DNA of 64,000 bases from an uncultured Candidatus Saccharibacteria bacterium (GCA_964501355.1 CAZCSM010000006.1:2347-66346), one strand, 5' to 3'. Positions 35,090-61,081 are shown, numbered from the stretch's first letter. The notes: a model not told the origin generated them from the sequence alone. Translations and numbers: made by a program.

Positions 35090-35854
35090 ATGCAAAAACG
35101 AACAAGAATTGGTGTGCTAAGTGTTCTTATGGGAGTACTCTTGTTACTCAGTCCTTCGTTTCACATCGGCAACCCGGCACTGTTTGCTGTTCTGGTGGCT
35201 TCTGTAATGTATTTTGGTCTTTATTGGGTTTTGGAATTTAACGTCATTGGGCTGCGCTTGATTTTTGTTTTTCTTCTACCAATAATTTTTACATTCTTAT
35301 TCGTTCAAAGATTACTAAGTGCATGGGGTAGTGGCGCAATCAGCTTCCCGATCGCTGTGTTTTTTGCCATCCTTACTTACGTTCTAATACTAACTGCAAA
35401 TATCTTGAATGTTGCATCGGTTAAGAAAATCCCGCTGCTTCAGGTCGCTCAGACGTCATTGTATTTCTTCTCTACAGTTACCGTTTTCTTTGCTTTCGAC
35501 GCCATTCAGGGCCTGGAAATGGGTACTATACTTGATGTTTTAATTATTGCTTTAGTGGGATTTATAATCACATACCAGCTGATGTGGTTTATTTTGGAGT
35601 CAAGAGCAGACCTCTTTAATGCCGCCTTGATGATCGATCTGGCTTTGGTGATGATTTACTTTGCTTTGTCCTTCTTTCCAATACCATATATGCTCTATAA
35701 CCTAGTTCTCGCGACTGTCTTCTACATCCTTTCTGGGTTATTCATGCATTCAGCAAAGAAGAGTCTTACCGTCGGTATTATTATCGAGTATGTTGTTGTT
35801 ATTGCTGTAATATCTACAATATCAATCCTATCACTTAATTGGGGAAGCTTCTAA
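35090..35854 (+). CDS. Polytopic membrane protein of unknown function
   Basis: 254 aa with about 7 predicted TM helices. No motif recognised. Confidence 0.35.
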   Translation: MQKRTRIGVLSVLMGVLLLLSPSFHIGNPALFAVLVASVMYFGLYWVLEFNVIGLRLIFVFLLPIIFTFLFVQRLLSAWGSGAISFPIAVFFAILTYVLILTANILNVASVKKIPLLQVAQTSLYFFSTVTVFFAFDAIQGLEMGTILDVLIIALVGFIITYQLMWFILESRADLFNAALMIDLALVMIYFALSFFPIPYMLYNLVLATVFYILSGLFMHSAKKSLTVGIIIEYVVVIAVISTISILSLNWGSF

Positions 35855-36570
35855 GAAGCTTTGGGTATATCAATCCAAGAACGAGAATCTATTCAGCCTG
35901 TTTTCCCGTCTTTATAATAAGAATCCTCTATGAGGATTCTCTCACTTTTGTTTATTAATACGGCGGATTGTAATCATGCAAAACTTTAAGAGGCATTAGT
36001 AAAGAGTGGGGGAGTAGGGGCCTCAAGATTAGAGATTGATAATTATTATCCCATAATTATAAAACTATAGGACCTGGAGTTAATAAAGTTTTAATAATTC
36101 AAAATAGGGTGAAACGGACAGTGAAACAGGAATACGCGTAACATTCATAGCTTACTGTGGATAAGTACCCCTGTGACCATATCCTCGGGGGAGACCCGGT
36201 TTAACACAAATAATGTATAAATAATAATTGTATTTATCTTATAAACGTTGATGGTGGAGGATTAAATAGATGAATATTATTCTAATTATTCCCCATTAGG
36301 GCGCGTTGATCTAAAATGTTTGCAAATCGACAATCTGAGTGCTAATATAAGAGCATAAACTATTTCGTATAATCACCCTTATGCGAAGTACTGTGTCGAC
36401 AGGGAGCGACGGGGCAGTCCCCTGTTCTATTTTCAATATTTGCTGATTTATCTCTTTGCTTCTATAATTAATTTGAATTATTAATCATTTATTTTTATAA
36501 ACAATTCTTTTATTTACCTTTCGGTCTTGTATTCGTTCTATTACTATTAACTTTCATTGAAAATACGCTT

Positions 36571-37686
36571 ATGGTTGCTTTAGATCCCCTATCGATTGAA
36601 ATTCCTTATAAAGAGGACTTTTTGATTGATTTGACAAACAATAATTACTCTATTGAAACTGTTTATAACTACGGTAGGGATCTTACGGTCTTTGAAAGGT
36701 TTCTACAATCACGTAAAGTTCCATTTGAGAAGTTGGATAAAAGGACGATTAGTTTGTACAAAGGATTTTTACGCTCAGGGAAACATTTGGAAATAATAAA
36801 TGAGCTTCGAGATAGAGAAGAATTTTTGAAAATTACGGGACATGCTTCAATTAACATTGGTGATACGGCAGAATCTCGTGTGACGAATTCTAAGGGGGTT
36901 CTAAGCGACGATAAGGTTGCAGGTGCTACACGAGGTGCTTTGCAAAATACAAGTTTGAATAAACTCTCGGCTCGATCTGTGAATCGGATGCTTTCTGCTC
37001 TCAGATCTTACCTCGGATATTTGCTCGACTATGATTATGTATGTCCGATTGCTCCCGAAGTTATTAAACTTATAAAAACGGAACGTAAAGAATCTCAAGT
37101 TGCTGATCTTGATGAATTAATTCAAATTATCGAAGCTTCAGAATTATATGAGGAAGATGACTTTGTTAAACTTCGAAATCGTGCAATGCTTGAAGTTCTT
37201 TTTTCAACTGGGATGAGAATCTCTGAACTTGTTAGTTTAGGAACTGCGGATATTAATGCGGAAGGTAAGATCTATATTATGGGTAAAGGAAAGAAGCAGC
37301 GTATGGTTTATTTGACCGAAAGGGCTAGGGGGCATTTGAATGAGTATATGAAGAGAAGAGGGACTTCTGAATTTTCTACCTCCCCTGCTCTATTTTTATC
37401 TTCTCGCGGTCAGGGGAAAAATACGAGAAAAAGTCGAATAACTCCACGTTATGTTCAGATGAAAATTCAACAATATCGCAAACTTTTGGGGATTGTGGTT
37501 CCGGTGACGCCACATGGTTTGAGGCACGGTTTCGCAACTTATTTGGCTGAAGAAGGCGCAAATCCGGCGGCGATCCAGAGGCTTCTCGGTCATGAATCTC
37601 TTCAAACTACGACAAGATATGTGCATGCGTCGGATAAATTTGCAGAGGAAACACATAAGAAATATCATCCGCTGGCGGTGGGATAA
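36571..37686 (+). CDS. Tyrosine site-specific recombinase/integrase (XerC/D-phage integrase family) with an enlarged N-terminal SAM-like domain
   Basis: C-terminal catalytic motifs HGLRH and LLGHESLQTTTRYVH, with R...K...H.R..Y placement. It follows a 716-bp non-coding region. Confidence 0.8.
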   Translation: MVALDPLSIEIPYKEDFLIDLTNNNYSIETVYNYGRDLTVFERFLQSRKVPFEKLDKRTISLYKGFLRSGKHLEIINELRDREEFLKITGHASINIGDTAESRVTNSKGVLSDDKVAGATRGALQNTSLNKLSARSVNRMLSALRSYLGYLLDYDYVCPIAPEVIKLIKTERKESQVADLDELIQIIEASELYEEDDFVKLRNRAMLEVLFSTGMRISELVSLGTADINAEGKIYIMGKGKKQRMVYLTERARGHLNEYMKRRGTSEFSTSPALFLSSRGQGKNTRKSRITPRYVQMKIQQYRKLLGIVVPVTPHGLRHGFATYLAEEGANPAAIQRLLGHESLQTTTRYVHASDKFAEETHKKYHPLAVG

Positions 37687-37890
37687 GAAAATTAAAAATT
37701 AAAAATTAAAAAGTAAAAAAGAAATTTTACGGTTTCAGTGGCAGGGACAGGATGAGGGTTTTTGTAGTCTGGAAAGTGCAATGCACTGTTACTCGTCACT
37801 GAATTTGTGTAAAAAATCTCTTGCAATCAGGCGGATTTTTGATAATATATGTCATATACTTATAAATATTTATAGTTTTGTGTCACAAAC

Positions 37891-38514
37891 ATGCGTTTTT
37901 TAGATTTTAAACAAAAGCTTGAAGGTTTTGTAGTATTTTCTTTGGATGATATTGGGGCTTTTGATCCGAATTTTAATATGGTTCAATTGTCGCAGTGGCA
38001 AAAGAAAAATTACATTAGGAAAATTATAAAGGGAAAGTATATTTTCTCTGATTCAGATTTAAATGAAAAACATCTTTTCTTAATCAGTAATGAGCTTTTG
38101 TCGCCGTCATATATTTCATTAGAAACGGCACTTTCGTGGTATGGAATAATACCCGAAGGTGTTTATACGATAACGGCGGTTTCACCTATTCGAACTATGG
38201 ATTATCAAGTTTCAATTGGTAATTTTTCTTACAATAAGATAAAGAAGTCGGCTTTCTTCGGAGATGTTGTGAATGAGATTCCCGGAACTAAGAGAAAATA
38301 TAGGATTGCTTCAATAGAAAAAGCCATTATTGATTATTTGTATTACCACAAAGAAATAGTATCTTCTGATGATATCGATGCTTTGCGATTTAATAGTACT
38401 GTCATAAAAAACGGTTTAGACTTTAATCTCTTCATTTCATATGCGAAGGTTATTGAAAACGCAGAGTTATTGAAAAGAGCCAATATTTTTGTAAAGTATT
38501 TTGAGAATGCTTAA
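37891..38514 (+). CDS. AbiEi-family type IV toxin-antitoxin antitoxin/transcriptional regulator
   Basis: N-terminal winged-helix segment FSLDDIGAFDPNFNMVQLSQWQKKNYIRKIIKGKY is typical of the AbiEi_4 domain. It overlaps the downstream toxin by 14 bp. Confidence 0.65.
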   Translation: MRFLDFKQKLEGFVVFSLDDIGAFDPNFNMVQLSQWQKKNYIRKIIKGKYIFSDSDLNEKHLFLISNELLSPSYISLETALSWYGIIPEGVYTITAVSPIRTMDYQVSIGNFSYNKIKKSAFFGDVVNEIPGTKRKYRIASIEKAIIDYLYYHKEIVSSDDIDALRFNSTVIKNGLDFNLFISYAKVIENAELLKRANIFVKYFENA

Positions 38515-39280
38515 ATTAAGTGAAATTAAAGAGAATTATTCTCCTAAATTACAGGTTTTCTCAAGAGGAATTCTGAGAGAATATATTCAATACAAGATTC
38601 TTGAGGTTATTTATAGTTCCAAATTTGCTTCGAAGTTGGTTTTCATGGGCGGAACAGCTCTTCGAATTGTTTATGATAATCAGAGGTTTTCTGAAGATTT
38701 AGACTTTGATAATTTTTCTTTAACAGTTGATGATTTTGAGAATCTTACCAATTTAATAGAGAATTCTTTGGAGAATGAGGGTTATGAAATAGAGATTAGG
38801 AATGTCTACAAAGGTGCTTTTCATTGTTATATCAAAATTCCGAAAGTATTGCAGCTTGAGGGTTTATCTGATATTTCGAACGAAAAGATTACGATTCGAA
38901 TTGATACAACTCCTCAAAATTATGATTATAAGAAGGGTTTATTTTTGATTGATAAATTTGGTGTGTATCAGAATATTTCTGTTGTCCCAATAGAGCTTTT
39001 GATGGCACAGAAGTTTGCTGCGATTTTAGGCAGGAAACGTGCAAAGGGTCGAGATTATTTTGATTTGTCGTATTTGTTTGGTTTGGGTGTTGAACCTGAT
39101 ATGTTATATATTGAAAAGAAATTAGGGTTTTCAAATTTGTCTGAACTTCGGATTGCTGTTCTCGATCATCTTAAGAATGTAAATTTGGAGGATATGGTTA
39201 AAGATGTGGAAAAGTTCTTGTTTAATCCTAGTCACACTGACAGAATAAGAAATTTTCCGCAAATGATAGAAAAGCTTTGA
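38501..39280 (+). CDS. AbiEii/AbiGii-family nucleotidyltransferase toxin (DUF1814)
   Basis: Motifs FMGGTALRIVY and RFSEDLDFD match the nucleotidyltransferase-fold abortive-infection toxin. Confidence 0.75.
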   Translation: MRMLKLSEIKENYSPKLQVFSRGILREYIQYKILEVIYSSKFASKLVFMGGTALRIVYDNQRFSEDLDFDNFSLTVDDFENLTNLIENSLENEGYEIEIRNVYKGAFHCYIKIPKVLQLEGLSDISNEKITIRIDTTPQNYDYKKGLFLIDKFGVYQNISVVPIELLMAQKFAAILGRKRAKGRDYFDLSYLFGLGVEPDMLYIEKKLGFSNLSELRIAVLDHLKNVNLEDMVKDVEKFLFNPSHTDRIRNFPQMIEKL

Positions 39281-39303
39281 AAGAAGCTTCCCCTACTTTC
39301 TTT

Positions 39304-39372
39304 GTGTACATGCTTCGGATAAATTCGCAGAGGAAACGCATAAGAAATATCATCCGCTGGCGGTGGGATAAG
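39304..39372 (+). pseudogene. Orphan duplicate of the integrase 3-prime terminus (last 22 codons plus stop)
   Basis: The 69-bp copy of 37618-37686 has 5 mismatches that are all synonymous, so it still encodes VHASDKFAEETHKKYHPLAVG followed by a stop. The last 33 bp are identical. Confidence 0.6.
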
Positions 39373-39605
39373 ATAAGGAAAAAGTAAAAAGGAAAAATAT
39401 GTGGTGAGCTTGTCCCTCCTTAGCGGGACGAAGTAAAACTAGGGGAAAAAAGATGCTTTTTCCTCAAATTTTTGGTAAAATGTTATCTTATATCTATATA
39501 TTATATCATTTTTATTTATTTATTTTATTTGTAGAATAAAATGCTGACACTAACAGGAGACCAACAATAGAATCTATTCTTGGAGATGAAGTTTTAGATC
39601 GTGCT

Positions 39606-40697
39606 TTGAAGATAGTAACAATGGAAGATTTTGATGCCACAGCACCTAATTATGCTGCTGCTGCATTGGGAACTACTGTTTCTGAAGCTCAGGCAGATCC
39701 GGATCAAGCTGTACAAAAACTTATCGAACTTCAAGCTAGATTAATGTCAACAAGTGCTTTGGCACCTGATTTTGCTAATAAAGTTCTTTTAGGTTTGAGT
39801 GATCTTCATACTGGCTTAGCTTTGATATTACCGCCAGACTTTAATGAAAAGGTTACTGCAAGAGCTGTAGAATTAGGATATGTTCCTAATAAACAGGAAG
39901 ATACTGAAGGAGCGCGAGAAGATAATGATGATTTTGATCCTTCCCAAGTAATTGTTAATTTAGCAGATACAGATGGTCTTGGTGATGTTGGAGATGATTT
40001 TTCACCAGAGCAAGCCGAGCAAGCTATGAGAGCTTTCGGATTGGTAAAGGAAGATGGGGTATCTTGGGCAGATCTTTATAAGCAATGGAAAGAAGAAAGG
40101 CATCCTGCAGTTCGTAATTTTCTAAACGGTGCACGGGGTTCTTTCAACGAAGCAGATTATAATGCATTGAGCACTAGGCTTCAGAGGGCTTGGGGAATTC
40201 TCGGTGAAACTTTAAGTTCTGGTTCAGAAAATGGAAATCTTTTGAGGGTGGCTTTAAATACAAGATTTGCTAGAAATGATTCAAAACAATCTTCTGCACA
40301 AGGTCAACAAAGACCTGTTGTAGAAGAAGTTGTCCGATCTCATGTAGCAACTCCTGTTGCTGTTAAAGCAAAGGCAGAGGTTGCTCCTACTGCCCTTTCT
40401 GAAGAAGAGAGATTGGTTATGGAGAAAATGGGATCAAGTATTGATAATCTTAGAAATATGGGAGCTGAAGCAGCATACAAGCTTGCTTGGAGTAAGTTTA
40501 ATAGAGAATGGCAAGATGCTGGTCGTGAAGCTATCGATAGAGACCTTAGCACAGGAAATGCCGGTCTGCAATTTAGACAGGAACAAACAACTGAAATTCG
40601 TACTGCAATTCGATATTTGAGAGATAAAGTCTTTGGAGAGGCTGAATGGCAGAAATTAGATGATAAATACACATTGACACAAAGACAGAGATGGTAA
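39606..40697 (+). CDS. Acidic soluble protein of unknown function, with a probable TTG or internal ATG start
   Basis: 363 aa, Ala/Asp/Glu-rich, no TM segment. Visibly higher GC and different codon usage from the flanking genes. Confidence 0.35.
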   Translation: MKIVTMEDFDATAPNYAAAALGTTVSEAQADPDQAVQKLIELQARLMSTSALAPDFANKVLLGLSDLHTGLALILPPDFNEKVTARAVELGYVPNKQEDTEGAREDNDDFDPSQVIVNLADTDGLGDVGDDFSPEQAEQAMRAFGLVKEDGVSWADLYKQWKEERHPAVRNFLNGARGSFNEADYNALSTRLQRAWGILGETLSSGSENGNLLRVALNTRFARNDSKQSSAQGQQRPVVEEVVRSHVATPVAVKAKAEVAPTALSEEERLVMEKMGSSIDNLRNMGAEAAYKLAWSKFNREWQDAGREAIDRDLSTGNAGLQFRQEQTTEIRTAIRYLRDKVFGEAEWQKLDDKYTLTQRQRW

Positions 40698-40715
40698 ATT
40701 TTTATTAGATTTTTT

Positions 40716-40748
40716 AAAAAGAGGTCTTAAAGGCGACCTCTTTTTTTA
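40716..40748. terminator. Bidirectional rho-independent terminator
   Basis: AAAAAGAGGTC-ttaaaggc-GACCTCTTTTTTT, lying between convergent genes. Confidence 0.6.
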
Positions 40749-52116: not shown

Positions 52117-53244
52117 ATGCCCGAAGATACAACACAAACAAGCGCAAGTGTTACTGCAGTACCTACTCAAGCATTGAAACCTTCAGGACCTTTGACTATG
52201 GCGAAGCTTTTGCAGCTCGTTGTTGATAGAGATGCTTCGGATCTTCATCTTACTGCCGGTTATCCTCCTATTCTTCGAATTGACGGAAAGCTTGTTTCTT
52301 ACGGAGTTAAACCTTTGGAAGCGGAAGATGTAAAAAAGCTTGTTTTGCAGACATTACCGGATGAACAAAAGGAACTACTTGAGGTGAACAAAGAAGTTGA
52401 TTTGTCATATGCTTTCGAAGAAAAAGCAAGATTTAGAATCAACGCCTATAACGAGAGAGGAAATGTTGCTGCTGCATATCGTTTGATTCCACAGGAGATA
52501 AGGTCTATGGAAACGTTGGGACTTCCGCAAATCTTTCATGAATTCACAAAACTTCCACAGGGTCTGGTTTTGCTTACAGGTCCTACCGGACATGGAAAAA
52601 GTACTACGCTTGCTGCTCTATTGAATGAAATTAATATGACCCAGGCAAGACATATTGTTACGATCGAAGACCCTATTGAATACCTTTACCCTGTTGGAAA
52701 ATCTCTTGTTGATCAAAGAGAGCTTCACAGAGATACTCATTCTTGGGAGATTGCTCTTCGAAGTGTTCTTCGTCAGGACCCTGATGTTGTTCTTCTCGGT
52801 GAGATGCGAGATTACGAAACAATTTCAGCGGCAATAACAGTTGCTGAAACGGGTCATTTGGTATTTGCGACTTTGCATACAAATAGTGCATCTCAATCAA
52901 TCGATAGAATAATCGATGTTTTTCCTGAACATCAACAGGCTCAGACACGAACACAGCTTGCAAATATTCTTGAAGGGGTTGTTTCTCAGCGACTTGTCCC
53001 CGTAATAGGTGGTGGTCGAAAAGCTGTTGTTGAAGTAATGCTTGCAACATCTGCCGTCAGGAATACAATTAGAGAAGGTAAAACATACCAAATTGATAAT
53101 ATTATTGCAACCAGTGGTGATGTGGGGATGATAAGTTTAGAGAAGTCACTTGTGAATCTTGTTCGCGAAGGAAAGCTAACGCTTGAAGAAGCTCAAGCCC
53201 ACTCTCTCAAACCAGAGGAGATTGTAAGATTGGTTCGGGGATAA
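52117..53244 (+). CDS. pilT: Twitching-motility retraction ATPase PilT
   Basis: Walker A LTGPTGHGKSTTLAAL plus the PilT-specific motifs GEMRD and AHSLKPEE. Confidence 0.85.
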   Translation: MPEDTTQTSASVTAVPTQALKPSGPLTMAKLLQLVVDRDASDLHLTAGYPPILRIDGKLVSYGVKPLEAEDVKKLVLQTLPDEQKELLEVNKEVDLSYAFEEKARFRINAYNERGNVAAAYRLIPQEIRSMETLGLPQIFHEFTKLPQGLVLLTGPTGHGKSTTLAALLNEINMTQARHIVTIEDPIEYLYPVGKSLVDQRELHRDTHSWEIALRSVLRQDPDVVLLGEMRDYETISAAITVAETGHLVFATLHTNSASQSIDRIIDVFPEHQQAQTRTQLANILEGVVSQRLVPVIGGGRKAVVEVMLATSAVRNTIREGKTYQIDNIIATSGDVGMISLEKSLVNLVREGKLTLEEAQAHSLKPEEIVRLVRG

Positions 53245-53264
53245 AGGAAAATTTAAAATTAAAA

Positions 53265-53633
53265 ATGAAAAATTTTAAAAAAGAGGAGAAAATTCAGTAT
53301 AGGGCTTATGCTTTTTCTCTTAATGTTATAAATCTTTTAAAGAGAAGTAAGAAACATGATTATATAAACGAGGTTCTTTTCAAGCAAATACTTCGTTCTG
53401 TAACTTCGATTGGAGCAAACATTATTGAGGGTCAAGCGGGAATTAGTCGTAAGGAGTTTCGAAATTATATGAGTATTGCACTCAAAAGTGCAAATGAAAC
53501 AAAATATTGGTTAGCACTAATACGAGATTTAAGGATATTTGTGAAAGATGATGTTGACTCGTTAATAGAAGAGTCAATAGAGATTGCAAATATATTAGGA
53601 GCGATTGTCTTCAAGTTAAGGAAAAATGACTAA
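53265..53633 (+). CDS. Four-helix-bundle protein (23S rRNA intervening-sequence protein family)
   Basis: 122 aa. SIGANIIEGQ...SANETKYWL matches the TIGR02436-type four-helix bundle. It is flanked by inverted A/T-rich repeats. Confidence 0.7.
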   Translation: MKNFKKEEKIQYRAYAFSLNVINLLKRSKKHDYINEVLFKQILRSVTSIGANIIEGQAGISRKEFRNYMSIALKSANETKYWLALIRDLRIFVKDDVDSLIEESIEIANILGAIVFKLRKND

Positions 53634-53680
53634 TGTGGAATGTTTTTGAATTTTTAACTTTTAATTTTTAATTTTCTTTT

Positions 53681-58342: not shown

Positions 58343-59096
58343 GAAAATCTGTGGTTATAGCAAAAATGAAAAAGGTCAGGTTTTATTGATGGTTATTATT
58401 ACCAGCACTATTGCTCTGCTTATAGTCACAGGTGTTTTTATGAGAGTTATGAAGTTAACACGTCAGGGTGTTGAGATGGAAACACACGATGCTGCATTTA
58501 GTGCTGCAGAAAAATACGCTAGACAGATCTTAGATCAACTAGAGTTAGGAAATACTGTGTCAGATACAACTTTGCAACAATGGGTTACTAATTACGATGA
58601 TTTAATTGCTGCAAGCAGAAATGAAATCAATAATATAAATGGATATTCTTTGGAAGATGGTAGTTCTTTTGAGATGGTTGGGGAAATGACCGGTTCTACA
58701 ACCTTCAAAATAGGTTCAGGATCTTGGGGAGATGTACGTATTCTTTTCACCTCCGTTGTTTATTCAGGGGGGCAATATTCAGTTCAAAAAAGAATATTTA
58801 AAACATGTAGTAATACTGATGGTGATTTGACAGCAGTTACATGTGCTTCTGCTTTGGATGTAGATACTTTTACTTATACACATCAGCCAGGCGAGGTTAC
58901 AGTACGAATGAAGCCAATCGGCGGAAAGGTCTCTTTAAATATAAATTCTTCTGCTAATCTATTTAATGAGTTTTCGTTTACAACTCGTGAAGAAGGCACT
59001 TTGTCCGAAGCCACATTATCAGTTCCTGTCTCAAAATCAATGCCTTCCCTATTCGATCATGTTTTGTATAATGGAAAAAGTCAAATTAATAAATGA
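58341..59096 (+). CDS. PilX-like pilus-associated protein. Paralog of the 27399-28715 gene.
   Basis: N-terminal EKGQVLLMVIITSTIALLIV shares the EKGQV-plus-hydrophobic anchor with the locus-1 PilX-like protein. Confidence 0.4.
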   Translation: MKICGYSKNEKGQVLLMVIITSTIALLIVTGVFMRVMKLTRQGVEMETHDAAFSAAEKYARQILDQLELGNTVSDTTLQQWVTNYDDLIAASRNEINNINGYSLEDGSSFEMVGEMTGSTTFKIGSGSWGDVRILFTSVVYSGGQYSVQKRIFKTCSNTDGDLTAVTCASALDVDTFTYTHQPGEVTVRMKPIGGKVSLNINSSANLFNEFSFTTREEGTLSEATLSVPVSKSMPSLFDHVLYNGKSQINK

Positions 59097-61081
59097 ATGT
59101 GTTTTTAGGAAAATCTATGGGAAAAATTTTGTTTAAAACTTTACTGATTGCTATTTCACTGATTATATTTGGGGGAATCTATTTCTTTTCCGGAAAGCCC
59201 ATTTTTGCAGCATGTGGAGATACTTGTTGTGTCTATTATTGGAAAGATGGTGCTGGAAACGATGTGTGCGGGGATTGGGATACTATTAGATGCGATGGGT
59301 GTTCTCAGAATCCTCCAGTATGTTGCGGACATTGTGGACCTTGTGCGCCAGCACCTTCTGCCGTTTGTGGAAATGGAAGTAAAGAAGGTTCTGAGCAGTG
59401 CGATGATGGTAATACAACAAGTGGGGACGGGTGTAGTAGCTCATGTATAACTGAGTTTTGCGGTGATGGGACGACACAGAACTGGCCTGGGCATACGGAA
59501 GAGTGTGACGATCATAATACAACAAGTGGGGACGGGTGTAGTAGTTTATGTATAACTGAGTTTTGCGGTGATGGTATCATACAGAATTGGCCGGGACATA
59601 CCGAGCAGTGTGATGATTGGGGTACTGCGCCTAATGATGGTTGTAGCGCAACTTGTCAAAAAGAGGTTTGGCCAATAGCAAAAATAGAGGCAATGGATAT
59701 CAACAATAATTTAATAGAGCATAACGCTCCTGGAGGTATACCTGATCTTAATCAGTATAAGGAGCTTAATCGTAGTACAAGTGATGATTATTTGAGACTT
59801 TCTACTGAGGGTCAAATTCCATTTGGATATAACATAGATCGAATAGAAATGTATTTTCGTAAAAGATATAACTTTGATGGAGCAGTTCCTTCATTAGCGG
59901 AGGCTCAGGCTGAATGTACCAACGGCTGGAGTACACCTCCTTCAAATCCCAGCTCCGCTTGGTGTGTTTATCAGACACCTCTATCATGTACATCTGGAAC
60001 ATGTTCTTCTTCAAGTGATTTTGCAACCTGGGACCCAGGCAATTACTCTTCAGGTTATTATGAATTCGTTATCAATGCTTTTGCGGATGGTGGTAATTGT
60101 ACGGGAAACCGAGATCATGATGGATATAATGCTGCGTTAGGTGTTCAAACCATAGCTCCTTGGTATGATTGTGATCCATATACGACGGAGGATGAAAGTA
60201 ACACGGTTTTCCCCAATCCTTGGTCCGGGGTAAATGAAGAAAGTGACTCTTTACAGATTGCATTGCTAGATAGCTGCGGAAATGGTATTAAAGAGGAATC
60301 TGAAGAATGTGACGATGCAAATGCTAGCAATTTTGATTCTTGTCGAGATAATTGTCTCTGGAACGTTTGTGGTGATGAGTATCCAAATACTGATGGAGAT
60401 CTTACAGATGCAACACAGACCCCACCGGCAAATAGCTATGTTGAAGAATGTGATCAAGGTGGTAATAATGGAACGGGACATGGTTGTGCACTTGATTGTT
60501 CTTTCGAAAATGGTGCTTGGTTTAGAACCTGGGATGGCGATATTTACTCAAGTGAGGGTGTCACTCAACGTGTCTCTGCAGACGTCCCCCTAGATCCTGT
60601 ATTCTCAACATATATGTGTTATGACAGTTATGGTATTTTCACAGTTGGGTTAGGATGTTTCAATACAAATATACTTGATGACGAGCCTAATTCGCCTTTT
60701 TATGTTGACTTGGATTTGAGTACAAGCGAGATTTCTCCTGTGGAAATAAAGACAAACGAAGAGTTTGTGAAAATACAAGCAAAATTATCTGGATTTACAA
60801 ATGAACAGAATTTTAGCAATAATGGAGTTGAAGTTACATTTTATAATGTTGCGGGAGGAGTCCGTACTATGCCGGAAAGAATAGAAGATAATAGAATCGT
60901 TTACTTGTCTGATAATCTAGAAATTGGGGAGAATATTGAATATAGTGAATCTTGCGCTGATGAGAAATCGTGTTCTTTATTAATTGTTGTAGATGGTAGT
61001 GTTACAATTACAAAAGATGTTGAGCATATAGACGCCTTCATTATTGCAAGTGGTAGAATTATAGTTGAGAGTGGGTATTAA
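59093..61081 (+). CDS. Secreted/membrane-anchored protein with Myxococcus-type cysteine-rich repeats
   Basis: Signal anchor, then tandem CG(N/D)G...E(Q/E)CDDGNTTSGDGCSS.C repeats (the TIGR02232-type pattern) and a large Cys-rich beta domain. Confidence 0.6.
   Translation: MNVFLGKSMGKILFKTLLIAISLIIFGGIYFFSGKPIFAACGDTCCVYYWKDGAGNDVCGDWDTIRCDGCSQNPPVCCGHCGPCAPAPSAVCGNGSKEGSEQCDDGNTTSGDGCSSSCITEFCGDGTTQNWPGHTEECDDHNTTSGDGCSSLCITEFCGDGIIQNWPGHTEQCDDWGTAPNDGCSATCQKEVWPIAKIEAMDINNNLIEHNAPGGIPDLNQYKELNRSTSDDYLRLSTEGQIPFGYNIDRIEMYFRKRYNFDGAVPSLAEAQAECTNGWSTPPSNPSSAWCVYQTPLSCTSGTCSSSSDFATWDPGNYSSGYYEFVINAFADGGNCTGNRDHDGYNAALGVQTIAPWYDCDPYTTEDESNTVFPNPWSGVNEESDSLQIALLDSCGNGIKEESEECDDANASNFDSCRDNCLWNVCGDEYPNTDGDLTDATQTPPANSYVEECDQGGNNGTGHGCALDCSFENGAWFRTWDGDIYSSEGVTQRVSADVPLDPVFSTYMCYDSYGIFTVGLGCFNTNILDDEPNSPFYVDLDLSTSEISPVEIKTNEEFVKIQAKLSGFTNEQNFSNNGVEVTFYNVAGGVRTMPERIEDNRIVYLSDNLEIGENIEYSESCADEKSCSLLIVVDGSVTITKDVEHIDAFIIASGRIIVESGY
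59402..59650 (+). repeat. 108-bp tandem DNA repeat, about 2.3 copies, encoding the 36-aa Cys-rich repeat
   Basis: gatggtaatacaacaagtggggacgggtgtagtag...gagtgtgac repeats at 59510 with roughly 90% identity. Confidence 0.7.

Follow-up and report, generated by a model that had tools for sequence, protein, structure and literature searches.

Behind the gene for an Xer-like tyrosine recombinase (xer), an uncultured Candidatus Saccharibacteria bacterium carries an AbiEi/AbiEii toxin-antitoxin operon, which is followed by a second, orphan copy of the xer 3′ end. The locus lies in a 64,000-nucleotide stretch of DNA (GCA_964501355.1 CAZCSM010000006.1:2347-66346; hereafter the window). In the analysis, the bacterium is described as Dojkabacteria-like, xer as a housekeeping gene and the operon as a small cassette for phage defense. 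The locus represents a real insertion scar, with no evidence that a mobile element of a new kind is involved. The explanation favored here, with a probability of about 0.5, is an insertion-duplication, either of Campbell type or homology-facilitated, within a hotspot of accessory genes, with subsequent upkeep by general recombination. The observations that bear on it are the anatomy of the repeat, the core position of xer, the variability of the slot behind this gene, the coding-type divergence of the orphan end and a recent homologous exchange at the locus.

The duplicated xer end and the operon between its copies

The repeat consists of two 67-base copies in direct orientation, offset by 1685 nt, and is the sole repeat of its type within the window. 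The features of the locus are the following.

36362-36389, plus strand: 28-bp dif-like palindrome of 11-6-11 architecture, ATTTCGTATAA TCACCC TTATGCGAAGT, recognized by its conservation upstream of xer
36571-37686, plus strand: xer, encoding a core chromosomal Xer-like tyrosine recombinase of 371 amino acids (Pfam Phage_integrase and SAM_1)
37620-37686, plus strand: copy 1 (c1), the functional end of xer (its final 22 codons), which begins right behind the catalytic-tyrosine codon
37654-37688 (equivalent to 39339-39373), plus strand: identical stretch of 35 nt, the final part of the comparison between the two copies
37687-37724, plus strand: 3′ tail of c1, an AAAATT-repeat tract and then AAAAAGTAAAAAAGAAA, which is duplicated behind copy 2
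37825-37890, plus strand: predicted abiE promoter and operator region, where the homology to other AbiE cassettes starts
37891-38514, plus strand: abiEi, antitoxin/regulator of 207 amino acids (PADLOC AbiEi, E = 3.7e-54)
38507-39280, plus strand: abiEii, nucleotidyltransferase toxin of 257 amino acids (PADLOC, E = 1e-87; Pfam PF08843, E = 7e-23)
39281-39304, plus strand: spacer from the abiEii stop to the orphan
39305-39371, plus strand: copy 2 (c2), the orphan xer 3′ end, with reading frame and stop intact and without a start codon
39372-39398, plus strand: 3′ tail of c2, GATAAGG AAAAAGTAAAAAGGAAA, homologous to the tail of c1
39442-39465, plus strand: terminator-like hairpin with T-run, 3′ of c2, as called by a consensus scan only

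A BLAST comparison of the homologous contig region returned a 93-nt ungapped match at 89% identity (E = 9e-28). The duplication described in a sequence-only reading of this DNA is real, although that reading had placed c2 one base out of register. Over the 66 coding nucleotides from the valine codon to the stop, the copies differ at four positions (37623, 37629, 37641 and 37653), all of them third codon positions and all synonymous (p = 0.012), such that c1 and c2 translate alike into VHASDKFAEETHKKYHPLAVG, followed by a stop. Five synonymous mismatches had been counted originally; the fifth, at 37619, is a nonsynonymous second-position change (Tyr to Cys) in the catalytic-tyrosine codon, at the edge of the homology. 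The proposal that both copies descend from functional genes is upheld by this synonymous signature and is strengthened by the second allele described below. In the window allele, the 35-nt identical stretch is the only plausible crossover or conversion zone.

The homology between c1 and c2 extends ∼30 nt beyond the stop codon, and the whole duplicated unit measures ∼100 nt. The AAAAAGTAAAAAAGAAA segment of the c1 tail (37708-37724) comes back behind c2 as AAAAAGTAAAAAGGAAA (39382-39398), the matched part being AAAAAGTAAAAA[A/G]GAAA, and the score of this match was reached by just one of 500 shuffles. As had been noticed from the sequence, a tract is absent from the second tail, namely the AAAATT-repeat of ∼20 nt, which is present only behind c1. 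Conversely, the terminator-like hairpin downstream of c2, which may have been the terminator of xer originally, has no counterpart behind c1. The A-rich AAAATTAAAAATTAAAAA-type tract (37685-37720) recurs in another intergenic region 16 kb away (53236-53280 and 53643-53678), at 78% identity in direct orientation and at 92% over 36 nt in inverted orientation, and may be a genome-wide intergenic or terminator-like motif.

Both the PADLOC and the Pfam assignments confirm that the interval between c1 and c2 holds exactly one operon, abiEi and abiEii, within an insert of 1.6 kb, as previously stated; no recombinase gene was found between the repeats in either search. Adjacent AbiEi (winged helix-turn-helix) and AbiEii (DUF1814) proteins encoded in one operon are the hallmark of AbiE type IV toxin-antitoxin/abortive infection systems. 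The 257-residue AbiEii is also the product called in the database, and its gene overlaps abiEi by 8 nt. AbiE systems are further characterized by an autoregulated promoter that carries operator repeats ahead of abiEi. Upstream of abiEi, an alignment with L089 and L091, two loci carrying related cassettes, reveals a conserved TTxACAA ... ACTTATAAAT ... ATG arrangement and a common ACTTATAAATATTTA block. The GC content of the cassette (∼30%, versus 37-42% in the flanks) marks it as foreign. Its nearest relatives, with 59-67% identity, occur in unrelated contexts in other Dojkabacteria without xer. No bracketing repeats were found around related AbiE cassettes of other genomes, and the cassette itself would therefore carry no att-like ends. 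The cassette had no match in plasmid and phage collections; in IMG/VR, the relatives of Xer and AbiEii were remote or lacking, and the degenerate DKFAEETHKKYHP DNA pattern gave no match.

A core recombinase gene with a variable slot behind it

The sequence-only reading took the recombinase gene for an element-borne integrase. Judged by its sequence and its neighborhood, the gene is instead a core chromosomal Xer-like recombinase gene and no island integrase. Its best NCBIfam matches are XerC, XerD and XerA, all under the equivalog cut-offs, and 4701 homologues were obtained at E < 1e-20; such proteins, ∼50% identical, number in the thousands across Dojkabacteria, other Patescibacteria and Dehalococcoidia. 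The invariant columns include R216, H315, R318, H341 and Y350, together with the lysine cluster K239/K241/K242, the catalytic lysine being one candidate among these. A tyrosine recombinase with the R-K-H-R-H-Y set, encoded by a single-copy, syntenic core gene, has the attributes of an Xer/dif recombinase.

Relatives at 66-79% Xer identity share the gene order pilM, yebC, ruvC, ruvA, ruvB, DUF5656, noncoding DNA and xer, and this synteny is kept in L003-L006 and L115. Behind xer follow a variable slot and then, on the opposite strand, vanW, gyrA and gyrB. It is this conserved neighborhood that identifies xer as a core chromosomal gene. Since xer is fixed in the chromosome, the suggestion that the locus is a tandem array of integrative elements fails. 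Several distant relatives have, 1-2 kb away, another Xer gene, which belongs to a different subfamily with the C-terminus MLGH..TTQIYTHV (L054:5290, L058:10564, L075:7302, L080:6872 and L107:8235), and some lineages may run a two-recombinase system, others a single one.

The content of the slot between xer and vanW/gyrA is different or absent in every relative, as listed here.

L114: empty, gyrA starting 16 nt behind xer
L006: empty, with nothing ahead of vanW
L113 (1548-2643): a 368-amino-acid gene of unknown function
L115 (8078-9266): a 275-amino-acid gene
L003 (8111-9340): two small genes
L005 (8108-10082): HEPN_Cthe2314, DUF6941 and one further gene
Window (37687-40745): AbiE cassette, orphan end and an ORFan

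With different or no cargo in every relative, the slot is a small hotspot for defense and accessory genes, 3′ of a core gene. Of the relatives whose flanks are usable, the two closest (L114 and L006) carry no cargo, and the empty sites that the sequence-only reading proposed to seek thus exist. Its companion search, for other cargo between the same repeats, found none in the slots of six relatives: in these six close loci there was no second xer end, at either the peptide or the DNA level. Orphan xer ends were likewise lacking in 80 GTDB loci and in 19 JGI loci. Among 115 related loci, the orphan-end structure is confined to the window and one second allele. The next accessory gene in the slot, the acidic 358-amino-acid ORFan (39621-40697, plus strand), matched only itself among 5.8 billion proteins and had no Pfam or PADLOC match; no further orphan end or repeats were found around it.

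The second allele and the conservation of the orphan end

The second allele (variant B) is represented by Logan contigs L001 and L002, which were assembled from sister samples and show 99.96% identity where they overlap. They encode Xer and AbiEi proteins identical to those of the window, and here too AbiE is followed by an orphan end. Over 2965 nt (36215-39180), comprising the dif-like site, xer, abiEi and 90% of abiEii, variant B does not differ from the window (100% identity). The flanks of this block are ∼75% identical, over ∼160 nt on the left and over the last 100 nt of abiEii on the right. Further downstream, the identity is 44% in a 25-nt spacer and 86% in the orphan, and past the orphan stop the alleles are unalignable and carry different genes. 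This block is a recent homologous exchange between fairly divergent lineages, both having AbiE and the orphan, and it points either to homologous DNA imported very recently over a large divergence or to recombination of two alleles inside a single population. The left flank of L001 was considered as a sign that xer and AbiE are mobile together; it fits the conserved synteny, because the noncoding DNA at this position in relatives (720-940 nt) is poorly conserved.

The variant B orphan encodes LHASDKFAEETHKKYHPLAVD, followed by TGA. Compared with the orphan of the window, seven codons differ synonymously and two nonsynonymously (at the boundary and at the last residue), in addition to the TAA-to-TGA change of the stop, and 8 of the 11 base changes fall at third positions (p = 0.009). 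Both orphans carry the EETHKKY motif of the species group, whereas all other relatives have ED..KKF. This pattern of divergence is that of a coding sequence. The orphan itself lacks an in-frame start, has just 12 open codons upstream and lies in frame +1 relative to abiEii. Its translation was accordingly rejected, as read-through from abiEii would use another frame. Constraint from an antisense ORF (open reading frame) was also ruled out as the cause of the conservation, because the sense third positions are the antisense first positions.

An end without a start codon that nevertheless diverges in the manner of a gene, right beside an unalignable spacer, would therefore have been refreshed by recombination with functional xer ends; a neutrally drifting stub is excluded, because the orphan does not resemble the neighboring spacer. 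From these comparisons, functional xer ends must repeatedly have given rise to the orphan or replaced its sequence. Coding-type conservation in an untranslated stub is the unusual and instructive feature of this locus.

The same comparison bears on the view that the orphan is the remnant of a tandem xer paralogue, in which an ancestor with the order xer-AbiE-xer2 later lost all of xer2 except the last 22 codons. The orphan clearly stems from a functional gene, and a second Xer-type gene does lie within 1-2 kb in the distant relatives named above. These neighboring paralogues are, however, of a different subfamily, while the orphan bears the exact EETHKKYHPLAV signature of the resident gene, and no relative was found with xer, AbiE and xer2 together. 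Moreover, a one-off deletion followed by drift cannot give codon-type divergence beside an unalignable spacer, and the homology of the 3′ untranslated tails argues for a duplicated resident end. A deleted paralogue is thus very improbable.

An assembly artifact, in which the xer ends of two strain variants were joined in tandem or a free circle was threaded into the chromosome via the 35-nt repeat, would be conceivable for a metagenome-assembled contig, as assemblers working with short k can be misled by an exact repeat of this length. A third sample (SRR8925812) supplied the 1018-nt Logan contig L116, which is 100% identical to the window and starts at window position 37659, five bases into the repeat; this start is probably a k=31 graph break, with the two-copy allele present in that sample too. 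In variant B, on the other hand, c1 and c2 have at most 14 identical bases in common and share no 31-mer, which leaves no k=31 ambiguity, and the structure there is therefore no repeat-collapse artifact. The independent contigs L001 and L002 span the junctions of xer with AbiE and of AbiE with the orphan and its flank. An artifact is scarcely credible in the face of these contigs.

Possible routes of insertion, known systems and the dif-like palindrome

In the favored explanation, a foreign AbiE operon would have entered the fast-turnover accessory slot behind the core xer gene by one of two routes. In a Campbell-type insertion, circular or looped DNA carrying ∼100 bp of the xer end of a related strain would undergo one crossover with the resident end. 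Alternatively, in homology-facilitated illegitimate recombination (HFIR), transforming DNA from a relative (with xer, AbiE and so forth) would find a homologous anchor in xer, its other join being illegitimate and just behind the catalytic-tyrosine codon of the resident gene. Both routes would yield an intact xer, the cassette and a displaced orthologous 3′ end. The orphan, although untranslated, would then be kept codon-clean by continued recombination with functional xer ends, either by gene conversion from c1 or by incoming DNA that spans an xer end, cargo and vanW-gyrA and uses the orphan as its left homology anchor, thereby swapping the cargo. Such anchoring would explain why the homology between the alleles ends exactly at the orphan stop and why different genes follow. 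A dedicated recombinase would not be needed in this scheme.

General recombination is supported by the poor resemblance of the junction repeats to the dif-like site: of its 22 arm positions, only 12-13 agree with the repeated xer 3′ end. Syntenic relatives have annotated genes for PilM and pilins, and DNA uptake is therefore plausible. A homologous anchor together with a single illegitimate or single-crossover join places foreign DNA beside the anchor and can leave a partial duplicate of the anchor gene, as is seen here. HFIR is documented in transformable bacteria (PMC6382021, which cites de Vries and Wackernagel 2002). Insertions of the HFIR and Campbell types are known from laboratory transformations; in the present case the route is read back from its end product.

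Several points weigh against this explanation. In both alleles, the orphan has the same left boundary to within 3 nt despite their unalignable spacers, and this boundary lies directly behind the catalytic-tyrosine codon; a fixed boundary of this kind is expected from a site-specific crossover, and general recombination explains it only if both alleles share one event. Direct repeats of 67-100 nt should recombine and delete the cassette, the persistence of which would require toxin-antitoxin addiction or selection. A donor arrangement, in which AbiE would come directly behind xer with no orphan, was not found among the loci analyzed. Finally, just two alleles are available, and the statistics rest on 4-11 substitutions.

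The fixed boundary lends some weight to a site-specific, integrase-less cassette, resembling the cis-mobilizable elements (CIMEs), the staphylococcal cassette chromosome (SCC) type or the integrative mobile elements that exploit Xer (IMEXs). A 1.69-kb unit comprising tail, AbiE, spacer and an xer-like P arm would have an attachment site that mimics the last ∼100 bp of xer, and a recombinase supplied in trans, possibly Xer itself, would insert it. The unit would supply a replacement end and leave the native end as attR, and cycles of excision and integration would keep the end of the element coding. Such a cassette would account for the intact xer, the insert bracketed by direct repeats of the target-gene 3′ end, the empty sites in relatives and the foreign GC content. 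Two alleles with the same left boundary and with differing orphans, tails and downstream genes could likewise represent independent integrations into two xer alleles. In the window, every mismatch between c1 and c2 is found left of the 35-nt identical stretch, which contains on the minus strand a weak pseudo-dif, CCAGCGGATGA TATTTC TTATGCGTTTC (13/22), whose inner heptamer TTATGCG equals that of the cognate right arm. IMEXs with degenerate arms are known, and their flanks can be formed by one good and one degenerate site (PMC5357621; PMC9765430).

Set against this are the position of the presumed cognate Xer site, which is 5′ of the gene and without an insertion, and the marginal quality of the pseudo-site. 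Scores of at least 12-13/22 occur at ∼0.15-0.5% of window positions, and the pseudo-site arises from conserved Thr-His-Lys codons. In variant B, moreover, the putative central regions are unequal (GAAATA in c1 versus AAAGTA in c2), which would block exchange by a tyrosine recombinase. No further cassettes with such ends were found in the 115 loci, nor anything related in plasmids, phages and IMG/VR, and the identity of the two alleles breaks off within abiEii (39180), away from the repeat. A site-specific cassette is accordingly considered doubtful, yet the most serious competitor; a small share of the probability is reserved for routes other than those considered here. The most novel form of the site-specific cassette, in which the AbiE unit would be a 1.7-kb integrase-less defense cassette that uses the host Xer at a pseudo-dif inside the xer 3′ end and keeps xer intact by a synonymous replacement end, appears improbable; if true, it would amount to a self-targeting IMEX-like cassette system in Patescibacteria. 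Apart from the real dif-like site, the best pseudo-site in the window was observed at 38909-38936 on the minus strand, inside abiEii (CCTTCTTATAA TCATAA TTTTGAGGAGT). It agrees at 17 of 22 arm positions, versus 15 for the next best in the 64 kb, and may be due to chance or coding-driven.

Phage 21 and e14, which reside at icd, carry a substitute gene end, and the ssrA genomic islands of Dehalococcoides are gene-3′-end-targeting elements as well. The AbiE insert resembles both in the intact target, the 3′-end copy on the far side of the insert and the empty sites in relatives, and its two copies differ mainly at synonymous sites, as in other elements of this kind. The elements of the icd and ssrA type have their own integrase beside the att site, extend over 10-60 kb and occupy the same site in many strains. 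In contrast, the AbiE insert shares with them the 3′-end repeat but no element-encoded integrase: it measures 1.6 kb, has no recombinase and occurs in one lineage (two alleles), and its target is itself a recombinase gene. The E. coli gene icd is cited as the site of e14 and of the lambdoid phage 21 in PMC12803456.

CIMEs and SCC elements without ccr have att repeats and no integrase, and their excision recombinase is supplied in trans; the anatomy of the AbiE insert may be called compatible with theirs. Similar to IMEXs such as CTXphi, TLCphi, the gonococcal genetic island (GGI) and Legionella mobile element 1 (LME-1), it is small and integrase-less and lies beside Xer machinery (PMC5357621; PMC9765430). 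IMEXs, however, insert at dif and come to lie between dif and a mimic of it, whereas here the dif-like site at 36362-36389 is unoccupied.

The likeness to an integron, which had been proposed for this locus, consists of a tyrosine recombinase gene followed by a small, repeat-bounded cargo cassette. Integron cassettes are located upstream of intI at attI, are mostly promoterless, carry attC inverted repeats and form arrays; the AbiE cassette, in contrast, lies 3′ of the gene, has its own putative promoter/operator, lacks an attC-like structure and occurs as a single unit. Integron-integrase models gave Xer 75 and 49 bits, versus cut-offs of 265 and 435, and arrays were lacking in the 115 loci; the integron-like interpretation is therefore abandoned.

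The locus is best classed as a further instance of a scar left by insertion-duplication within a hotspot of accessory genes. If the insertion-duplication explanation is true, it provides a clean natural example of the acquisition of defense genes by the tiny-genome bacteria of the candidate phyla radiation (CPR), in which a core 3′ end is duplicated at insertion and the leftover stub serves as a homology landing pad, codon-clean though unexpressed. This would be useful for the annotation of such stubs and for models of hotspot turnover, without amounting to a new mechanism. The site-specific alternative, if true, would yield the first integrase-less cassette aimed at the recombinase gene that it exploits.

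The dif-like palindrome, which sits 180 nt 5′ of xer and outside the duplication, is presumed from its sequence to be the cognate site of Xer, and its architecture and inner arms (ATAA/TTAT) match the dif pattern. Because it includes TATAAT, a role as operator over the -10 box of xer is also conceivable. Cognate sites of Xer/dif recombinases are imperfect palindromes of 28-31 bp, present once and located at the replication terminus. At up to three mismatches it occurs in a single copy in the window, where none is expected by chance. It is invariant in eight close relatives, in which the noncoding DNA around it is scrambled. Homologous palindromes were detected 5′ of xer in ∼47 loci of Patescibacteria and Dehalococcoidia, with symmetrically co-varying arms and the family consensus ACTGAGTATAA-N6-TTAYACTCAGT, located 2-400 nt and occasionally up to 2 kb upstream of the gene; their positions include L003:6791, L006:6795, L115:6781, L020:6576 and L101:5937. 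The linkage of a recombinase gene to its site, suggested here by a family-wide palindrome, recalls XerS/difSL (PMC5357621; PMC2731167). Unlike the 31-bp difSL, the palindrome of the window has the canonical 11-6-11 architecture, and its dif function is putative. No description of this dif-like palindrome, linked to this Xer family, was found in the searchable literature; it may outweigh the insertion scar in worth and may merit a study of its own.

The palindrome forms part of the noncoding region between DUF5656 and xer (35855-36570 in the window; 720-940 nt in relatives), which is syntenic in the genus and is composed of invariant islands split by hypervariable stretches (alignments A3 and A4). 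The islands comprise ACTATAGG, GTGAAAC, CGTAAC, a DnaA-box-like TGTGGATAAG, the palindrome and a GGGGCAGTCCCC hairpin at 36408-36426. Rfam gave no match over 35500-39700 and L001/L002, and RNAalifold recovered from the upstream region the palindrome and one hairpin, with no further consensus. An AT-rich 11-6-11 pseudo-palindrome in the c1 tail (37708-37735) was rejected as a site, as it has no counterpart behind c2 and agrees with the cognate site at 12 of 22 positions. A replication terminus with dif at the xer 3′ end was likewise discarded: the cumulative-skew maximum at 40.7 kb merely reflects a 9.5-kb block of minus-strand genes. The GC skew tracks gene orientation in the window, does not switch sign at the palindrome and is positive again from 50 kb.

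Elsewhere in the window, a 662-amino-acid ORF (59093-61081) contains two tandem copies of a 105-nt unit (59397-59606) that are 85% identical.

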